Shown: in pieces, positions 17,538-36,696 of the stretch
Layout: each line of letters starts with the position of its first letter
Position numbering within the stretch: the first letter of the stretch is position 1
Source: Sphaerodactylus townsendi
Taxonomy: Eukaryota
Length of the DNA stretch: 64,000 bases
Reading direction: 5' to 3'
NCBI RefSeq assembly: GCF_021028975.2
Contig: NC_059429.1
Coordinates: 32,240,001-32,304,000, forward strand
The notes under the pieces: model-generated
The model's database searches: none
Told to the model about the DNA's origin: nothing
Seen by the model: only the letters and a program-made list of their open reading frames with translations
Program-made: the position numbers and the translations under genes

Positions 17538-18483
17538 TTGAGGCCTCACCTAGAGTACTGTGTTCAGTTCTGGGTACCGCAATTTAAGAAGGATATTGAC
17601 AAGCTGGAATGTGTCCAAAGGAGGGCAACCAAAATGGTAAAAGGTCTGGAATCCATGCCATACGGAGAGATACTTAGGGAGCTGGGGATGGTTAGTCTGG
17701 AGAAGCGAAGGTTAAGGGGGGACCTGAAAGCTATGTTTAAATATTTGAAGGGATGTCATGTCAAAGAGGGAGCAAGCTTGTTTTCTGCTGCCTCAGAGAC
17801 TAGGACACGGAGTAATGGATTCAAGGGATGTTCAACAGTGGAATTCACTGCCTCAGGCCGTTTCCGCACGGGCGGAATATGGCGGCCTGGGGACGGCAAA
17901 AACGCCGTCCCCAGGCCGCCATTCGCACAGGAGGCGCAGCTGCTTCACAGCCGCGCCGCCCTTGCGCCGCCCGCCCGGCGCCGAGCCGGTGTTTTCAGAG
18001 TGCGCTGGGAAGCGCACTTTTCTGAAAACGTCGGCTGGAAGCCGCTGCCGTGCGAACGGCAGCGCCTTCCCGGTGCTCCCCCCCCCACTCCCTGCCTTCA
18101 CTCATCTGCTCTCCGACCCTCCAGCGCATTGCCGGGGCCTGAGGACACGCCCCGCTGCTCTGCAACACGGAAGCAGGCGCACAGGGCAGGGGAGGCATGT
18201 CCCCAGGCCCTGGCGATGCGCCGGAGGGCCGGAGAGAAGGTGAGTTGACCGGGCGACGGCGCCCAGTGGCGCCGTCTTCCCAGTTCTTTCTGAAACGCCG
18301 ACCCAAGCCCTTCCGCCTCCGTGCGGAAAGGGCCTCCGATAGTGGTAGAGTCTTCTTCTTTGGAGGTTTTTAAACAGAGGCTGAATGATCATATGTCAGG
18401 AGTGGTTTGATTGTGTATTCCTGCATGGCAGGGGTTTGGACTTGATGGCCCTTGTGGTCTCTTCCAGCTCCATGATTCCATGA
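17538..18483 (+). mobile_element. 5'-truncated CR1 LINE 3' end, interrupted by a MITE
   Basis: [11 protein letters not shown]...[16 protein letters not shown]...[10 protein letters not shown] is CR1 ORF2 C-terminus; ends in a catgattccatga tail. Confidence 0.9.
17856..18334. mobile_element. CpG-rich Harbinger-type MITE inserted in CR1
   Basis: TIR ggccgtttccgcacgg / ccgtgcggaaagggcc, imperfect TSD tca/tcc, subterminal hairpin. Confidence 0.8.
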
Positions 18484-23252: not shown

Positions 23253-25628
23253 CAAGATGGTATCTGGTCTCCCATGTTTATTAACCTGTAGTCAGCTGCC
23301 ATTGTCATCATCATTATTACTGCTAATAAATACATTTATATCCAACAATCTTAATAAATAGGGTTTCTAACCACCACCTCCAAAAATACTACAGGACAAC
23401 ATCAGTAATAACACACAATGAAAACCGCATCAATTAAACACCATCAAGTCAAACAGAACCTACTTTGAAATCAAACCAGCCATAAAATTCAATAAAACAA
23501 TAGCAGAAGGCTTTAGATATGATAATAATATGGGTCTTCAAAACTAGGACCCAGCATTAAGAAAATCAAGCCTGGAGCATTTTCACCTGGTGTCTAAAAC
23601 CATCCAGACTAGGAAACAGTCTAAATGCTGAGAAGATGAGGGGATTCCATAAACAGTGTGCCACCACAAAAAAAGCCCTCTTTGATGCCCATCTACTTCA
23701 TTTCAGATAGATGACTGTGGCCTGCCAAATTTTCAATAATTAAAAATACATTTTTAATTAGTACTTCATTATTATTGACACTACTTTCAATTGCTTTTTA
23801 CTTCTTTGCAGATATTTCAAAGCACAATGCTAATTTTGTATGAAAATGAGCCACTAAGATAGTACCCTCATTTCACAATTCACATTTTTAAAGAATATTT
23901 TTTTCTCTGATTGCTGTTTAGGATTTAGGAAAGACTACAAGTACAGAAGTATTATAATTTTCACATCAGATAAAGGAAACTACTGTATAATTAAATTAAC
24001 TTCGTTAAAAGACAAGACATCAATTCCTGAGAGGAGCTGCACACAAAATTCTGGGAGCCCCTGCAGCATACACTGCACTATATTTTTACATATGATTGCC
24101 AGTTCTGGGTTGGGAAATACTGGGGATTCTGTGGGTCGAGCATAAAGGGACAAAGTTTGGGGAGGGGAGATAATTCAGTGAGGAATAATGCCATAGAGTC
24201 CTCCTTCCAAAGTGGCCATTTCTCCACATGAATTGATTTTTGTTCCCTGTAGATCAGTTGTAATAGGGGAATATCTCCAGTCTCAACCTGGAAGTTGGCA
24301 ACCCTCTAGCTATGCTACTTACAGAAAAGTGGCAATATTGGTGAAGTGGCTTAAAGAAAGAGGCAGATGGCATCTCCAAGCAGATGGCAAAACCAGGATT
24401 ACTTGAGGCCTTGGTGGGCTGGACTCACATTATATAGGCCCAACACCATACACACCAGGGTTAGACCCAAGGTGGGGCCTGAGATCTCCCAGAATTACAA
24501 ATGTTCAGATCTCTTGGAATTACAAATAAAGGGCAACATCCTCTTATTCAGTAGAGGCATAATGACAGGCATGGACAGCATGCAGAACTTCTTGGGGGCA
24601 ATAACTAAGAAGGCCCCTAAGATCCAGAATGGCGTGTGGCCCACCATCCTTCTTCTGAATAACAAAGTAGCACAAGGAGACCTGCTCCCAAGGGAAGCAT
24701 GGGGTATTCACCGCATAGAGTTTTTCTCAATAGTGTGGTCCCCTGCTGCTTCTGGAGCCCATACTGGGAGTAAGTCCCATAGTTATAGTACTGCTTGAGG
24801 GCCACACCTCGGCAAGACAAGGAGCCAGCTGTCTGGGCAGGTTGAGAAATCCCCAGGGAGTTCGCCTCAAGTTTGTCTTTACAGAGACCAAGCAGCACAG
24901 TATCTGTGCTCTTATGGAATAGCTATTTCCTACCAGAAGGCAAGTTCTTCACTTGTGACCTTACATCATGTAACAGATCAGAGGAATGCAACCATGCTTG
25001 GTGGTGCAAAAGTGACACAGAAAGCAACCCCCAGGTGCAGCCATCAGCACAAGGAGTAGCCACCTGCCTGTGTAACCTCAGCTTGTGGGTTCTGTGGGGC
25101 AGTACTTGGAAGGAGTTGCAAAGAACCAAATTTAAACAAAACAGTTTACTTCTCTTTACAAATAACATTAAACATCAGCATTTAACAGTACAATCCAAGG
25201 TCCTGTTCAGGTTGCATTTCAAGACCTTCTAGTTACAGTCTACTGATACTGCCAAGTCCAATTCTTCTTTGCAAGTGGGTTGGCCCCTGAAGACTCCAAG
25301 GGTTTGATGAACAGGATGCAACATGATGAAGGTTTCCAGGAGAACTCTCACCCATTACAACCACAAAAGAAACCCTGAAACAATAAACTCCAACATTTAC
25401 AACATAGCAAAAACAAACAACTACCTTCCTGGTAGTTCCCAATAATATTGCAGTTAACCTTAACAAGGTGTTAAGGGCTTATAGAAATCAAGGTCCGAGT
25501 CTGGTAGCCTTGTCTTCTCCAAAGAGCTCTGCAGCCTTTCTGCTGCTCTGAGTCTCCACCCCCTTACTGGTTCAACCCATTCTGGGCATGGGGGTTACAC
25601 CTGCAAGAGGCATTCTGAATCAAGGGTG

Positions 25629-26112
25629 TGTTGGCCTAGTGCACAGCGGAAGGACTAGGTGCCAACTCACCCTTGCTAGAACAGGAGGTAACTGCTTGCA
25701 GTATAAGAAAAAGAAACACTCAGACAGTAGATTTAGTTCCAACAGGAATACTTTATCTCTTGTTTCTCAAAGGAACAAAAATAACAATAACTATCCACTC
25801 TCTACTCTGACAACAATCTGAGCCCGAACCTGAAGGTGAAGGAGAGGTACTGAATTGGGTATGCAGTCTTCTTATATAGTTTTGTCCAGCAAATCATTAG
25901 CTAGATGATCTAATCATCCTGGCCTGTGACCTTTTCACTTCTGCTGACTGTTACATGCCAATCACTGCAGACCCAGACAGAGAGGCTCCGACCTTTACAA
26001 TTCTGCTGACTGTTACATGACAATCACTGCAGACCCAGACAGAGAGGCTCCGACCTTTACAATTCTGCTGACTGTTACATTCCAGTCATTCTAGACCAGC
26101 ATATGACCAACA
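25629..26112 (-). repeat. 3' LTR of copia element
   Basis: Matches the right LTR up to 26109; TATA (tatataag on - strand, ~25871-25878) and 62-bp U3 tandem repeats at 25941-26080. Confidence 0.92.
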
Positions 26113-26137: not shown

Positions 26138-29100
26138 CTAAACCCAAACCAAACACCAAGTCATTATGTTTTTTTGTATTGGTAATGGCTTTGTTAAGAT
26201 GTCGGCTATGTTTGCAGATGATTCACAGTACTGCAACTTAATCATATTTGACTGTATCAGTTGTTTTACATTTTGGAATTTCACAGCTACATGTTTAGTA
26301 CGACTTTTAAGGTTTTCGTTCTCTGCCATGGCTATACATGTCTGTGAGTCTTCAAAAACTGTTATAGGTTGTTCACATTTCTCACCCAGGTCTTTTAGCA
26401 ACTGCATAACCCATTGTAGCTCATTGCATGCCTCATTAAGAGCCGCATACTCTGCCTCAGCAGTTGAAGTGGCAACCGTTGTTTGTTTCCGAGATCTCCA
26501 ACAAATCGGATGGCTGCCATATTGCATATAATAACCACTCACTGACTTACATCCTGAGTCCTCTGCAAATGAGCTGTCCGCATACACCACTAAGTCCTTG
26601 TTGTTTTGGTTAGAAAAGTGTAAACCATAGTTAGCAGTTCCCTTCAAGTAACGAATTACTCTTTTTAGCCCCTGCCAGTCTTTCTCAGTAGGTTTTGCAA
26701 CTGTTCTACTTTAATAAACCTACAGCAAAAGCTATGTCTGGTCTTGTCCAGTTAGCAATGTGCAGCAGGCTTCCAATTAAGGAACGATATAGGTCTTGCC
26801 TTTCAAATGTTTTGCTGTTATCTTGCTTACAAAAAATCAGCCACCATTGGGGTTTGTGCCACTTTGGCATCTTGCAGACCAGCTTTTGTATGACACCCTC
26901 TATCTTTGGTGTTTGTGTCATAGTCCCTTCCCTTGCTTCAGATTTACTGACTTGAATACCCAGGTATTGCTTTAGATACCCCAAGTCTTTCAGCTTAAAG
27001 TGTTTACTCAACTCAGTGTAAAGTTGTTTGATTTGGTTGTCTGTTTTTGCAACCACACAGAGATCATCAACATAAATCATCAAAATGATACATTCATCAC
27101 CAGTACCTCTGGTATATATACAGGCATCGGCCACACTTTAGTCAAATTTCAGTTCACATAATGCTTTGTGTATGCACCTGTTCCAACATCTGGCTGACTG
27201 TTTCAGCCCGTACAAAGCTTTGTTGAGCTTATAAACTTTATCAACTTGTTCATGCTCATAACCTGGTGCTTGCTTCATGTATATGGTCTCTTGCAAATCT
27301 GCATTTAAATAAGCTGTTTCAAAATCAAAGTGCCTCATTTTAAAGTCTCTTTGCTCAGCCAGAGCAATCACTAATCTCATGGATTCTGCCTTTGCAGTGG
27401 GTGCATAAGTCTGATCATAACTGTCAAACTTTGTTTGAGAGAAGCCTTGTGCGACTAATCTTGCTTTATATTTGTAAGTCCCATCGGGCATAGGTTTCAT
27501 GTATACCCATCTTGCACCTATGATCGGCTTATCAGTAGGTTTATCAACAATGTTAAACACTTTTAAGTTCACCAAGGATTCAAACTCATTGTCCATAGCC
27601 TGATTCCATTTTTCCTGTTCCTCAGGTGGACATTTCAACATATCATGGAAACCTTGTGGTTCTGTCCCTAATTGGCACACTCTCACTTCTTGTACCATAA
27701 ACCTTTTTGGTGGTATGCCTTTATTTGCTCTTTCTGATCATTGGTATAGCTATTTCTCCAGTTTGCTCAGCCCCCTCCTCTCCCTGGCTTCCTTCCGATC
27801 ACTATCACTGTTCTGTTGTTGCTTAAGGCTCGGAGCAGATGTGTGACCTTGAACAGGGAGTGGGGGTTGCGTGCTGTCACTCGGTACCGTGCCATGGCTT
27901 ACTGGTGGTAAGAACACTTCAGAGTTTTGATGCACATGTTCCCAACCTGTATGCTTTTCAAAGTTGGCACCGCGTGAGATAGCAATTCTTCCATGACCCA
28001 ATGAAAATCTATACCCTTTGGTATTCTGCGCATATCCTACAAAAACGCAGTCTCTGCCATTTCTTTTGTCCTTTTTTCCGTTGCTGTCTGGGAATGAGGA
28101 CGTTAGCAAAACTCCCAAATATTCTAAGGTGTTTCAGGGAAGGCCTTTTGCCAAACATTCTGAAAAATGGTGTTTCATTGATACTTGAACTCCACAACCT
28201 GTTTATTACATGTGTGGCAGCTAAGACAGCCTCTCCCCAGAAATGGAATGGAACCTTGGCATCATTTATCATGCAATCCCGCATTGTTTGAAGAATGCCT
28301 AGTCTCCTCTCAGCCACGCCATTTTCAGCCGGGCTGAACGGATTTGTTCTCCTGTGGCTAATACCTTTCTGTGTCAGCCATGTTTGGAATTTGTTCCCCA
28401 TGAACTCACCGCCTCTGTCAGATTGCAGGCAAGCCACCTTGTGAGGGAACCTCCGTTCAATCATTGAGACCCATTCCTTAAACCTTGTAAAGGCTTCATC
28501 CTTAGATTTCAACAGCAAGCAGTAAGAATATCTGCTATAATCATCAATCAGCAGAAATATATATCAGTGCACCTTGATTGGAAAGGACCAGCTAAGTCTG
28601 TATGGACTAGTTCAAATGGTCTTTCCATTTGTCTGTAGCTCTTTGGGGATTGGATAGGATTTCACCTTAACCCCACTACAGACTGAACAGTCTAGGAATG
28701 CTTTGCAAGGCTTTACACTCAAATCACATACTTTTGCCAACTGCTTGATGGTGGCAAAACTTGCATGTCCTAGGACTCTGTGAAGATAGTGCACACAATC
28801 ATCATGCATAGGCTTATTAGCTAGACTTGAAACATTCATTACATTTTCATTTTGCCCTTTATCAGTCATAACATACATTTTGTCGCAGAGTGTACCTTTT
28901 GCACACTCTATGTCATTCTGCCATACTGTACAACCCTGTCTATCAAATATAGTTTTGTACCCTTGTTCAGCTAAACTTGGGACGCTCAACAAACAAAAAT
29001 CCAGTCCAGGAACACACAACACATTTTGCAACTTTTTACCTAGGCATGGTATGTAGGCAGTTCCTTGCAGCGTAACAGCAGCTGGTGATCCATCGGCCAA

Positions 29101-29987
29101 GCTGACATGCTTCACACTTGCCTTGGACTCCTCAGTCAATAGGTGATGAGCATTTACGACATGCTCTGGAGGAGGCAGAGGCGAAGAGCCAGATGGGTGG
29201 GTGTCTCTGGACATCGGTTCTCAGCAATGCCCGTCAAGTAGTGCTCCTTCTTTCCTCATCCCCGTTGTCCTTTAGCTAGCCCCTTATTCTCCCCCTTCTG
29301 TGAGCATTCTCGGAGAAGATGATTAGTAGAGCCACAACAGAAACAGAACTGCATATGACCTTGGACAGTTCAGGGAAAGTTGGGTTTCACTTTTGCCTCT
29401 GGAAACAGCAGGCTTCTCTCTGGCTGTGGCTTCAAGGCAAAACTCTCTTTGTTTCTGGAGCTCCAGAAGCCGTGCAGTCACATAGTCTAGAGTCAAATCA
29501 TCTTCCTTTATGCTCTGCATACTATAGACAAAATTGTCCCAGCTGTCATCTAGGGAAGATAGTACAATATAGGCCCTATGCTGTTCAGTGAAAGTCATGC
29601 CTCTGTCTTCCAGCTCGACGAATAGTGTATGCAGCTGTTGGACATGGTTGGCCACATTTTCACCTCCTTTCAGCTTCAAATTGTATAAACGTCTGGTCAA
29701 GATTACCTTGGAACCAGCAGTCTCGTGCCAGGTACAGGTCCTTCAACACCTTCCAGCAGTCAGAAGCCTTCTCAGCAGCCGTAGATAGATGAGCTGGGGA
29801 GTTTTCCACAGCCAACATTATGGACGCCTTGGCTCTGGCATCTGCCCTCTGCTCTGCTGCTGTGCCTGGGTTCGGTGGGGTCTGCGACTACAGCCCATAA
29901 ATCTTCGCATGTATGAGAAAGCTCTGCATTTTCACACTCCATGCTGAGTAGTTCCCTGCAGTCAGCCCGCTCAAAGGCAAACTGCAC
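26138..29987 (-). pseudogene. Frameshifted copia gag-pol
   Basis: Gag with CX2CX4HX4C knuckle (CFCCGSTNHLLREC, ~29300-29345); IN HHCC and DDE motifs (VHTDLAGP, SDRGGEF, ENGVAERR); RT (KARLVAQG, LYGLKQS, YVDD); RNaseH (YADSS, TAEAEY, NIADILTK). Split over 8 ORF pieces. Confidence 0.93.
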
Positions 29988-30046: not shown

Positions 30047-30060
30047 CTGGGCCCATAACC
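30047..30060 (-). other. Primer binding site for 5'-half initiator tRNA-Met
   Basis: GGTTATGGGCCCAG, 4 nt after the 5' LTR; complementary to the anticodon stem-loop of tRNAiMet, as in Drosophila copia. Confidence 0.9.
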
Positions 30061-30064
30061 AAAT

Positions 30065-30575
30065 TGTTGGCCTAGTGCACAGCGGAAGGACTAGGTGCCA
30101 ACTCACCCTCGCTGCTAGAACAGGAGGTAACTGCTTGCAGTATAAGAAAAAAAGAAACACTCAGACAGTAGATTTAGTTCCAACAGGAATACTTTATCTC
30201 TTGTTTCTCAAAGGAACAAAAATAACAATAACTATACACTCTCTACTCTGACAACAATCTGAGCCCGAACCTGAAGGTGAAGGAGAGGTACTGAATTGGG
30301 TATGCAGTCTTCTTATATAGTTTTGTCCAGCAAATCATTAGCTAGATGATCTAATCATCCTGGCCTGTGACCTTTTCACTTCTGCTGACTGTTACATGCC
30401 AATCACTGCAGACCCAGACAGAGAGGCTCCGACCTTTACAATTCTGCTGACTGTTACATGCCAATCACTGCAGACCCAGACAGAGAGGCTCCGACCTTTA
30501 CAATTCTGCTGACTGTTACATTCCAGTCATTCTAGACCAGCATATGACCACCTTGCAATTTTCAATATCCTGACA
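30065..30575 (-). repeat. 5' LTR of copia element (511 bp)
   Basis: TGTCAGG...CCAACA on the - strand, followed by the PBS. Confidence 0.93.
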
Positions 30576-30679
30576 GGGTGTTCCCCGCCCCCCAGCACCA
30601 TCTATCAAGGAACCCAATCATGAATGCATAGCTTGCTACTCGGGGCCTCACTGCCTCCATAAAGTAATTACAATGACTC

Positions 30680-32535
30680 AGGGCAACCCAGCTTTTTCCC
30701 TTCCTTGTGAAATGGGTGCCATCACCAAGGTGGCTTGAATGTGGCAGGCAGAACCTGAGCCACTAGAAAGTTGGAAGGGGGATGCATTCCCCACTGGCAG
30801 CTTGATTTCAGAGGTGTCAATCACCTCAATAATGTCCCCAATAATGTCCACCACCTCTGGTGGTGCCATTATTCCCTTGCAATTGAAACTCATAGTTAAT
30901 TGACTTGGCATTGCTATAGAAGTAAAGCCCTCAAAGCCCTCGGTAACTCACCATCCTGACCAGCTAGTCAATGTTTCTGTGAGCCTCCAATGAGGCAAAC
31001 CACCATCTCAAGTTCCCCATGGTTGGTGCCAGCCTCAGAGTCTGAGCTGATCGCGAGGGTAGGAGGGGGGGTTGGAGCAGAACCAATCAAGTGCCTTAAC
31101 CTCTCACCAAGCAGATAGTGCCCTCTGATGGAACTATGTCCATTCATCTGCCATAGGTCATATTAGCATGCCTGCGTAGGTCTTAGTGTGCTGCCAACAT
31201 TCTTGGGGGATGCTGAGAGTATCTCTGCACCCCAGGAGTCTTCTGTAGAAAACATGAGAATGCAGTCCAGGCTATTGTTTCCTCCAAGTAGGAGGAACAG
31301 CGGACATCTCCCCGAAGATATTGGGGAGGGTAGCCAAGCACTTCTCTCTGGATGAGGAGATTGCCTGTTCCGTAACACTCAGGCCGTTTTCGCACGAAGG
31401 CGGAAGCAGCCGGGTTGGTGTTTACGACGCCGACCCAACGATGCTGGGACCGTCCGCACGGACGGTCCTGGAAACAGCCGGGCAGCCAGCGCCGCGGAGC
31501 GCCGGTGCCCGGCCGACCTGGCATGTCCCCAGGCCTCCGGCGCGTCGCCGAGGCCTGGGGACACGCCCCCCTGGCCCTGCGTGCCTGCTCCAGCGGCGCA
31601 GGGCAGGGGGGCGTGTCCCCAGGCTTCGGCGATGCGCCGGAGCCCAGGGACAAGGTAAGTGCCGGGTGGGGGAGGCATCGCAAAGCCGCTGCTGTTCGCT
31701 CGGCAGCAGCTTCGAGGCGGCGTTTCACCAAAAAGAGCGCTTCCAAGCGCTCTGGGGAAACGCTGGCTCCGCGACGGGCGGGCGGCGCGGCTGCGATGCA
31801 GCTGCGCCCCCTGTGCGAATGGCGGCCTGGAGACGGCGTTCTTACCGTCTCCAGGCCACCATTCATTGCCCGTGCGGAAACGGCCTCAAAGATTGTTGAG
31901 AATGCTGCTCAGGAGAATGCCAGCTTTTGGCCTGCGCTGGTCGTTTCTTCCCTGGGGAAGGTGACTGGAGGTGCTTCAGAGTCTATTCCCTTGCTGAGGT
32001 GGTAGGGGAGCCTTCTCCCCCACACCCAGAGAATTATCCTGCATCCAGGCAAACAGGGAGCCTTGGGGGGAGAGCATCATCTTTCAAGAAGGAGTGAAAT
32101 GCTCTCAAAAGAAGTCACTCTCAAGAGAAGTCCCATGGAGAGAGTGTTACCCTTCAAAGAGAGCCAAAGTGCTCTTAGAGGAAGCCATAGCTAAGTGTCA
32201 TTCCCTTAGCCTTCTTAGGCAGTGCCAAGACCTGCCATAGGGAGCAGTCAGCGGTGGAGGATGAAAGTTTGGCATCCCGGGAGTACCCTGCTTCAAGGGG
32301 TACCGGTAATTTCTACAGCTATGAAGGTACATCTGGAGGGAGAGAGTACGCCCCTCCCACCAGGTCATGTGTTCCTGGGCAGGAAGAGCAACTATCCCAG
32401 GCTTGTGACTGGGGAAGGGAAGCACTCATCTAATGACTAGAAACTCTTAAAATGCTAACTTAAACTGCACAAGTGCAGTCCCATGTACAGAGGACCACTG
32501 GATGAACAATAGTTATGATAAGCAACACTGTTTAT
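30680..32535. mobile_element. Degraded retroelement relic, possibly DIRS-like
   Basis: Ends in gaggaccactggatgaacaatagtta, related to the DIRS-like ends at 21.7 kb; no intact ORF. Confidence 0.35.
31382..31885. mobile_element. CpG-rich Harbinger-type MITE (same family as 17856-18334, opposite orientation)
   Basis: TIR ggccgttttcgcacg / cgtgcggaaacggcc, perfect TSD TCA. Confidence 0.85.
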
Positions 32536-34171
32536 CTCCAGACACAAGGTCAATTTCCCTTGAGAAAACAACTGATTTGGATGGTGGACTCTATGGAATT
32601 ATACCCTGCTGAGGTCCCTCCCCTTCCTGGGCTGCACCCCTAACATGCCAGGAATTTCCTAAACTGGAGGTGGCAATTCTAGAGGCCCAACTACAAATTA
32701 ATACATCCTCCCCACCTTTCTTCTGCCAATTTTGTAGAACTAGAGTTCTGAGGGTTTTTCATACTGTTGAGGAAATATGGCAGAGTGGCATGGGTCACTG
32801 TTTCACATATTAGGGGAGGTTGTTACATAGAAGGTTTGGATACTGTAGGAAATAATTAACACCTTTTCTAATTATAATCATAATTTGTTCCATTTTCAGA
32901 GGACCATTAAAAAGGGCAGAGGGAGGTTGTAATCTTGGCAGTTCACAAACTCCCTATGGAAACGCCTAGAGCCAAGCTTAGATGTCTTTTATTACAATTT
33001 TCTTAATTCTCTTTTTTTTAAGTCTCTCAAATACCTGCTTAATATTCCTCTGGTGGTGCCATTATTCTCTTGCAATTGAAACCCAGAGTTAATTGACTTG
33101 GCATTGCTATAGATAGAAGTAAAGCCCTATCTTGTAGTAAAAAACCCCAAAACATATTGGTAAAAATGTACATGGAGAAGATTGTTCCCATAGGTAGCTA
33201 AATAAGGTATCTGAATCCTTAGGATTTTTTTTTTGAGATTTTGACCTGCTGGGTTCTCTAGTTTGTTTTTAAAACATTTGCATTTGAAAGTTCAGCCCCA
33301 AGCACATGTTCAGTCTCCAGAGGTTCAATTGTCACTAGTAATACAAATCAAAAAAACCCAAAGCAAGATCTGCCTGAGCTATCAAAATCTTTCAGGGTCA
33401 AGCTGTCCACAATAGCCAATGTTTTCCCATGTTACTTTTGTCCTTTCAGTGGGTTGTGGTGCATTTAAGGTTAAAGGACGACCATGTTCTAATAGTTCCA
33501 GAAGAATAGCTGTGCTAGTGTATTGCAACCACATTAAGCAAAACTCTTCGAGTACCTTAAAGATTTCTAGCTTAAGCTTTTGTGGACTACAGACTGCTTT
33601 GTCAGAGCCATCTGGCAAATTGAGCTGTAGTCCAGGAAATGTTATACTAGAATAATGAGTTTGTTTTTAAAGGGTCACAGGACTTTTACTTGACATAATT
33701 TCCCTGTTTTGTTGTTGCTTTTTAAAAATCTAGTATCCCTCCTTAGGTATTGGGCATAGCCTGGAATATGTTGGATTTTACTGTTTATTTGAGGTGATCC
33801 TATATCTTACTGCTTTGTAGATCTATACATTAAGGTCACAATACATCTGTCCACCTTCAACCTCCTCTACTTATAAAGAAAGGGAGACACCACAGTGTCC
33901 CCATGTGCATACTGAACATTATATGGAACTCTGGATCAAGCAAACATTTAAGAGGCAAAATTAGATGTGAGGACAGTAGCTCCATCAGTTTAAACATAGA
34001 ACTAGCACAACTGTGTAGAGAGGGAGGGAGCACAATATCAAGTTTTGAAGGCAAAAGGGACTCATACAAGAAAGGAGTTGAATATCCCTCCTTCTCAGGA
34101 GTTACCTCCCTGTAATACCCCCTTCCACAAGGGCTTTTCCACAGTACCCCAATCCATTGTGGGAACGAGAA

Positions 34172-36573: not shown

Positions 36574-36696
36574 TATTGTCAAAGGCTTTCACGGCCAGAT
36601 TCAACTGGTTCTGGTGGGTTTTCCGGGCTGTGTGGCCGTGGTCTGGTGGTCCACCAGACCACGGCCACACAGCCTGGAAAACCCACCAGAACCAGT
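36574..36696. mobile_element. Short Penelope-like insertion with inverted 46-bp arms
   Basis: ggctttcacggcc..actggttctggtgggttttccgggctgtgtggccgtggtctgg resembles squamate PLE ends; 11-bp TSD atctgccaatc at 36563-36573 and 36697-36707. Confidence 0.8.

Follow-up and report, generated by a model that had tools for sequence, protein, structure and literature searches.

A putative second primer-contact site in the U5 end of half-tRNA-primed copia retrotransposons of Sphaerodactylus townsendi

How the half-tRNA primer of copia/Ty5-type retrotransposons is annealed to the element RNA, and how it is cut, has to our knowledge been an open question since 1986. The question is raised again by a copia element in a 64,000-nt stretch of the Sphaerodactylus townsendi genome (contig NC_059429.1; hereafter the window), where the LTR end beside the primer binding site (PBS) carries a second stretch of complementarity to the same initiator tRNA (tRNAiMet), and we ask here whether this stretch is a contact site for the primer and whether it might bear on how that primer is made. 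Half-tRNA priming defines the hemiviruses (PMC8515867; also passages of PMC1181622, PMC6317226, PMC10275265 and PMC10886601), in which synthesis starts from nt 40 of tRNAiMet in standard numbering (PMC8515867, with a passage of PMC1181622), and primer contacts outside the PBS are described for Ty1, Ty3, HIV-1, FIV and RSV in part of PMC5371799. Hemivirus LTRs, by the excerpted text of PMC3601003, could not be modelled in that study.

The element runs along the minus strand, with a 5' LTR (TG...CA) at 30065..30575, a 3' LTR of nearly the same sequence at 25629..26109, and a 5-bp target site duplication whose upstream and downstream copies lie at 30576..30580 and 25624..25628. Its coding remnants are a pol fragment with a Pol beta-barrel domain and GAG-pre-integrase (28612..29220; PF22936, PF13976), an integrase core fragment (28009..28563; PF00665, PF25597) and, downstream of the integrase, a copia-type reverse transcriptase fragment (27138..27737; PF07727, E 4e-46), all on the minus strand, and by these profile hits the integrase (rve) precedes the reverse transcriptase (RVT_2), as is the order in Ty1/copia elements (Pseudoviridae). 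The two LTRs, their TG...CA ends, the 5-bp duplication, the PBS and a polypurine tract known from a sister copy likewise are those of Ty1/copia; relative to that sister copy, the present one lacks the polypurine tract and the beginning of its 3' LTR. Since the LTRs differ by only two substitutions and two small indels, the insertion appears young. The closest named vertebrate proteins to those of its family come from Podarcis lilfordi, and trees built without named copia, Ty5 or 1731 sequences show a clade of element families with Podarcis lilfordi proteins. Because a TATA-like and a poly(A)-like signal are positioned within the 5' LTR at 30319 and 30199 (minus strand), from which we infer the U3/R/U5 borders, the feature of interest here falls in U5. 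Both LTRs also carry a 62-nt tandem duplication in their U3 part (30369-30538 and 25928-26097), and near the element lie a 67-nt direct repeat pair (30854-30920 and 33047-33113, 2193 nt apart), a 46-bp near-perfect palindrome (36604-36696) and dispersed GC-rich copies (18119-18290 with 31471-31642).

The tRNA used throughout is that of the host, taken from its two tRNA-Met(CAT) genes (L034, L035) in place of the vertebrate tRNAiMet sequence on which the initial annotation of this DNA had relied, and it is numbered sequentially along the 72-nt gene. Against this sequence the PBS (30047..30060, minus strand) is, as had been proposed, the exact complement of nt 26-39, that is of the anticodon arm and not of the 3' end, which makes it a PBS of the Hemivirus or half-tRNA type; a 4-nt spacer (30061..30064, minus strand), a trait of this family that most other families lack, sets it off from the LTR end. 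The annotation had also folded the adjoining LTR end into a hairpin, and the element RNA (minus strand) does form it in both the MFE and the centroid structure, as a family-specific hairpin of 11 bp with a 2-nt bulge and a 13-nt loop at 30066..30102 (in plus-strand coordinates stem arms 30066-30076 and 30090-30102, loop 30077-30089, bulge 30096-30097) that recurs at 25630-25666 in the 3' LTR. The proposed pairing of the loop with the tRNA holds with the host gene as well: 12 nt (30077..30088, minus strand) are complementary to nt 10-21 with a sole G-U at G12, and thereby cover the 5' strand of the D-stem and the entire D-loop. The one departure from full complementarity amounts to a C-to-T change at a CpG, and the match can be extended by 3 bases into the 3' stem arm (30074..30076, minus strand; tRNA nt 6-8) if one G of nt 9-10 is skipped, a step that is energetically about neutral. 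At -24.3 kcal/mol against tRNA nt 10-22 the U5 site is equalled by none of 5874 background 40-nt windows from the rest of the window, and at -29.5 kcal/mol against nt 1-25 by 8 of the 5874 (all energies are for unmodified RNA, ignore modifications, proteins and topology, and put no penalty on crossing helices). The complementarity of loop and tRNA is thus far above chance for this genome.

The annotation had further supposed that the tRNA site is displayed in a hairpin loop; of this, a second tRNA-contact site in U5 stands, and loop display as a general trait does not. The hairpin is weak and not convincingly more stable than shuffled sequences (z -1.56, equalled by 12 of 200 shuffles), and on this score and with no matching hairpin among 12 representatives of other families we rejected it as a conserved structure. 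In those 12 representatives the match sits in open, internal-loop or paired stretches, and in at least one family it lies inside a U5-leader stem that explains its CCGC core equally well. Within the family the stem region is identical in the 30 best-scoring LTR copies (chosen by score, this element's two LTRs included) and differs in 6 of 10 copies from the PBS sample, mostly by small indels and with 0 compensatory changes; contigs from three related organisms, a weak test, show no change at 5% or more within 30065-30102 and changes on both flanks. The family is young and the tRNA invariant, so that neither the stem nor the pairing of element and tRNA offers covariation to score.

The match to the tRNA, unlike the hairpin, reaches beyond this family. 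The PBS 14-mer has 714 exact copies in the 1.81 Gb, its reversed control 0, and 141 PBS sites were examined (89 after removal of tRNA genes, four tRNA-derived loci and duplicates, plus 52 more). These gave 28 LTR clusters, from which 16 families were kept (12 multi-copy and 4 singletons with a gag hit) and 12 singleton clusters lacking a gag hit were dropped. A family was called positive when, in most of its copies (up to 6 scored), the final 60 nt of U5 could pair with tRNA nt 1-22 over 7 bp or more, a single G-U being allowed; these cut-offs of 7 bp, 60 nt and nt 1-22 were set after part of the data had been seen, only 3 families being new afterwards, 2 of them positive. By this measure 14 of the 16 half-tRNA LTR families sampled carry a match, and the U5 ends of the 14 do not align with one another. 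Control probes recovered far smaller numbers of the 16 families (tRNAiMet nt 41-62, 2; tRNAiMet nt 51-72, 0; reverse complement, 0; reversed, 2; tRNA-Leu, 4; tRNA-Lys, 4), control windows 60-240 nt further upstream gave 2-4, and shuffled probes reached 14 families in 1 of 150. After opening costs, net binding at the U5 end beats that of the upstream control window in 16/16 families.

Coverage along the tRNA peaks at nt 1-8 (0.40-0.59) and nt 13-20 (0.35-0.58), dips at nt 9-12 and falls to background over nt 23-39 and 48-72. The target is accordingly wider than the D-arm, since nt 1-8, the 5' strand of the acceptor stem, are matched in many families. The D-arm is the sole target in the family studied here and in the largest family, and others match the acceptor strand only or both parts in order, at a distance of 3-52 nt from the PBS. 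A second, unrelated U5 end contains the same 12-mer as part of a 15-nt match. Leaving this family out, the 9 gag-linked families retain a signal at nt 12-20 (equalled by 0 of 300 in each of three nulls) and at nt 10-22 (by 11, 3 and 1 of 300). As separate observations from the survey, a near-palindromic ACTC..GAGT lies within 45 nt after the PBS in 13/20, 9/17 and 11/15 copies of clusters 0, 2 and 3 (e.g. L020, L016, L417), and as it pairs with U5 in some folds it is a possible dimer or U5-leader element; moreover, scattered single-base indels in otherwise near-identical copies (L028, L047, L061, L260) may be assembly errors, which would also affect apparent frame breakage.

The 16 families are not independent trials, because 11 of them belong to one clade. 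A quick gag tree joins these 11 with two Podarcis proteins (SH-aLRT 100), places one family outside on a long branch and finds too little alignable sequence in four, one of which falls outside the clade in a quick integrase tree and has an acceptor match in 3/4 copies. By these trees at least two lineages carry the match. It also appears to go with the type of primer: a copia family of the same genome that is primed from the 3' end of the same tRNAiMet has the nt 1-22 helix in 0/26 copies, tRNA-Lys PBS loci have it in 0/6, and all control clusters together in 1/22, so that the site follows primer type as judged against one 3'-end-primed copia family and 6 Lys-PBS loci. Leu-PBS loci were tried as a further control and set aside, their matches being mostly chance (12 against 6 for the reversed probe). 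The 3'-end-primed family (L453-L482, 26 copies) has features of its own, namely, in 22/26 copies, a PAS-like 6-nt match to the T-arm (nt 49-54) within 45 nt of the U5 end, and in 19/26, just after the PBS, a match to nt 26-31 that could also pair with U5; these are short matches in one family.

Outside this genome the picture is different. From 71 half-tRNA clusters in metagenomes we kept the 28 that were gag-confirmed and dropped 43 that had no gag hit, and these 28 copia clusters show no overall U5 enrichment, with nt 1-22 matches in 5/28 against 43/340 controls. The acceptor match is weakly raised (4/28 against 10/340, p 0.016, uncorrected and one of eight tests). A D-arm match occurs in 0/28 of these metagenome clusters. 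Among 99 PBS sites from a viral collection none gave a copia protein hit. Some members of metagenome cluster 0 (35 sites; L123, L169, L172 and relatives) have an 8-nt D-loop match about 20 nt after the PBS, in the style of a Ty1 box, which is not significant across the 28 clusters. In the Sphaerodactylus genome itself, the feature is real and lineage-wide.

On the state of the primer the genome offers a record of its own. A search for genomic matches to the PBS plus five further tRNA letters returned 16, comprising 2 tRNA genes, 2 tRNA-like copies, 4 that extend only 5-6 nt and 8 read-through copies (L252, L254, L256, L257, L259, L261, L264, L265), in which an LTR-like end and the PBS are followed by tRNA sequence from nt 25 downward and then by unrelated DNA, where we found no copia protein hit. 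All 8 belong to sister families and none to the family studied here. These genomic copies start at tRNA nt 39 and stop by nt 10: three of the 8 have nt 10 as their last tRNA letter, the rest end at about nt 10-15, and 0/8 pass nt 10. In human tRNAiMet m1G9 is present and G26 only partly modified, according to part of PMC7293042, and the host tRNA is presumably modified in the same way. Judged by their sequence, the read-through copies are likely to be inserted plus-strand strong-stop products that record a stop at G9. Because they carry read-through into the tRNA, never past nt 10, the 5' arm would have been on the primer. The insertions would then document, at the level of the genome, priming of a vertebrate copia from nt 39 of a tRNAiMet that still has its 5' arm, and an end of copying at G9. 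In families c1, c2, c6, c7 and c11 the partner of tRNA G9 is often skipped or mismatched where the match spans nt 9, while other families keep C (an observation made without statistics), as would be expected if m1G9 does not pair. Two further loci, L007 and L009, are palindromes of two head-to-head copies of tRNAiMet nt ~10-45 with related flanks, and by gag or LTR end are not LTR elements.

Taken together, the complementarity, its spread among families and its link with primer type suggest that the U5 match is probably a functional second primer-contact site, which would hold and open the 5' arm of the tRNA while the PBS pairs with the anticodon arm. From the geometry, the first contact would be loop to loop, between the exposed U5 loop and the D-loop (nt 13-20), and pairing would then invade the D-stem, for which the top of the hairpin must open. 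With the D-arm paired, the anticodon stem would open to the PBS at a lower cost, and the initiation complex would be stabilised until reverse transcriptase, about 16 nt into synthesis, displaced the U5/tRNA helix. The co-folding check that the annotation had suggested shows one helix at a time, because the U5 and PBS helices cross: a full-length tRNA binds at the PBS and the loop stays unpaired, whereas a half tRNA binds at the U5 site.

Whether the site could also promote cleavage of the tRNA, as the annotation had supposed, depends on the family. In families in which nt 1-8 are bound as well, the 3' half thus released is modelled to refold into a helix between nt 40-44 and 65-69, and a cut site would then come to lie at the 3' end of the primer. 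In a constrained model the probability of this helix is 0.02 when nt 26-39 are held and 0.09 when nt 10-21 are added, the acceptor stem remaining closed, and rises to 0.98 with nt 6-21 held and 0.99 with nt 1-39 held. The cleavage role is thus modelled where the site takes nt 6-8 or 1-8, and does not extend to this family's own site, whose best state is nt 10-21 alone at a net -16 kcal/mol with the acceptor stem closed; reaching nt 6-8 would gain 1.1-1.5 and cost 1.5 plus the opening of the stem. Refolding is predicted in 12/16 families and in 8/16 control windows and so does not discriminate, for which reason we treat the cleavage role as a hypothesis. In its fullest form, this would have the half-tRNA copia elements of this vertebrate lineage make their own primer: U5, together with the PBS, would act as an RNA guide that captures the entire 5' half of tRNAiMet (nt 1-21 and 26-39) and strips off the 3' acceptor strand, the 3' half would refold into a mini-helix with its 5' edge at the 39/40 bond, and a host nuclease such as RNase P would release the primer only on element RNA. 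This is a tentative and rather doubtful proposal; if true, U5 could help explain how a half-tRNA primer is made.

Could the match have come about for other reasons? It may be an old U5 motif with another job, such as a U5-leader stem, integrase end recognition or 3'-end processing, which the clade inherited and whose resemblance to the tRNA is a one-time coincidence, and the common ancestry of 11 families, the frequency of CTG-rich words, the pairing of CCGC with the leader in one family, several acceptor matches at 3-5 nt from the LTR end and the lack of a general signal in the metagenome families would all agree with this. We nevertheless think it unlikely, as the part of the tRNA that is matched varies from family to family (nt 12-19 alone, nt 1-8 alone, or the two in order) over a range of 3-52 nt from the PBS, two unrelated U5 ends have matches of 12-15 nt, one family outside the clade has a match and the 3'-end-primed copia family has none. 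The read-through copies raise another origin, in which such a tRNA copy from plus-strand synthesis was captured into an LTR and has been decaying there since, to no function. That 8 of the 16 pattern matches are read-through copies, that this family's site starts at nt 10, just where they stop, and that its single difference is a C-to-T at a CpG speak for such a fossil, which would however contain nt 22-39 and lack nt 1-9, when the families show the opposite; moreover no nt 22-39 remnant is found 5' of the site, as 232 of 1000 shuffles score as well here and 164-983 of 1000 in five other copies. As a full account we regard it as improbable, although capture could be the origin of a site that was later kept for function.

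Two further readings give the match a different partner or a different strand. In the first, a CTCTG-type box would find its partner in nt 40-45 of the full tRNA and so lengthen the PBS helix past a small bulge, flagging the 39/40 bond to a nuclease that the element encodes; tRNA nt 40-44 do repeat nt 3-7, coverage has a small bump (~0.2) at nt 40-46 and two families have the box as close as 3-5 nt to the PBS. Yet the sequence beside the box is mostly that expected for nt 1-8, with CT at its end, no variant among the commonest listed has the terminal GG that pairing with nt 38-39 requires, and the family studied here has no such box and matches the D-arm instead, so that we give this little credence. 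Least of all do we favour an antisense A box for RNA polymerase III, derived from a tRNA in the manner of Helenus-type LTRs, which according to part of PMC10886601 carry tRNA-derived A and B boxes. Although tRNA nt 8-19 are the A box, a B-box motif on either strand near the site occurs in 0/10 copies of the studied family and at most in 3/17 of any family, the match in this copy passes over one G of nt 9-10, which belong to the A box, and many families match nt 1-8, outside it; such a promoter is a most improbable source of the match. A point that counts against the second-site reading itself is the 1999 work of Ke, in which Ty5 reportedly tolerated tRNA changes outside the anticodon arm.

A second primer-contact site in U5 is the reading we prefer, and it can be set beside several known systems. 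Like Drosophila copia, Ty5, Osser and 1731 (Hemivirus), this element has a PBS to the tRNAiMet anticodon arm and the copia domain order; it differs in that its U5 end matches the 5' arm of the tRNA, no second U5 site being reported for those elements in the literature searched. In retroviruses the PAS/U5-T-arm site lies 5' of the PBS, binds a tRNA segment 5' of the PBS-paired part and can hide in a U5-leader stem. The layout here is alike in its crossing helices and would be shifted to the arm that a half primer keeps, in that the HIV-1 and RSV contacts bind the T-arm of a full-length primer, whereas the present site matches the D-arm or the 5' acceptor strand. The HIV-1 PAS and the U5-T-arm contact of RSV/ASLV aid initiation by extra pairing outside the PBS (part of PMC5371799), and the U5 site here has a putative role of that kind. 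Ty1 and Ty3 use the same tRNA, and Ty3 contacts with the D-arm are described in the same part of PMC5371799. In contrast to the half primer considered here, both prime from an intact 3' end, and the second part of the Ty3 site is ~4800 nt away in U3. Ty1 boxes lie 3' of the PBS and thus give nested, not crossing, helices.

As to the making of the primer, a passage of PMC5371799 attributes the Ty5 primer to RNase P, and the titles of Kikuchi 1990 and 1992, as given in part of PMC2359750, speak of RNase P 'hyperprocessing' of Drosophila tRNAiMet by an internal cut in an altered conformation. The likeness lies in the 40-44/65-69 helix, which our model predicts once nt 6-8 or 1-8 are taken. Drosophila tRNAiMet is reported to be cut by RNase P RNA when folded with this helix. 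The Kikuchi work reportedly used bacterial M1 RNA and had no element RNA as a trigger, whereas in the model considered here the trigger would be the U5 of the element. Helenus TRIMs are similar in having tRNA-like sequence in the LTR, and their fungal members use anticodon-loop priming (part of PMC10886601), but they keep A and B boxes as a promoter, where this family has a short antisense match to the 5' arm and no B box in 10/10 copies.

In the literature searched, to which older key papers and Repbase did not belong, we found none that describes a second U5 site for half-tRNA elements, and none on the PBS types of squamate copia. By sequence, the locus has what marks a bipartite PBS or PAS-like arrangement, a stretch of the element away from the PBS that is likewise complementary, beyond chance, to the primer, and the best reading by analogy is that of a site comparable to the HIV PAS or the Ty1/Ty3 boxes, adapted to a half primer. 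If the U5 site is functional, the PAS or bipartite principle known from retroviruses, Ty1 and Ty3 would extend to half primers.
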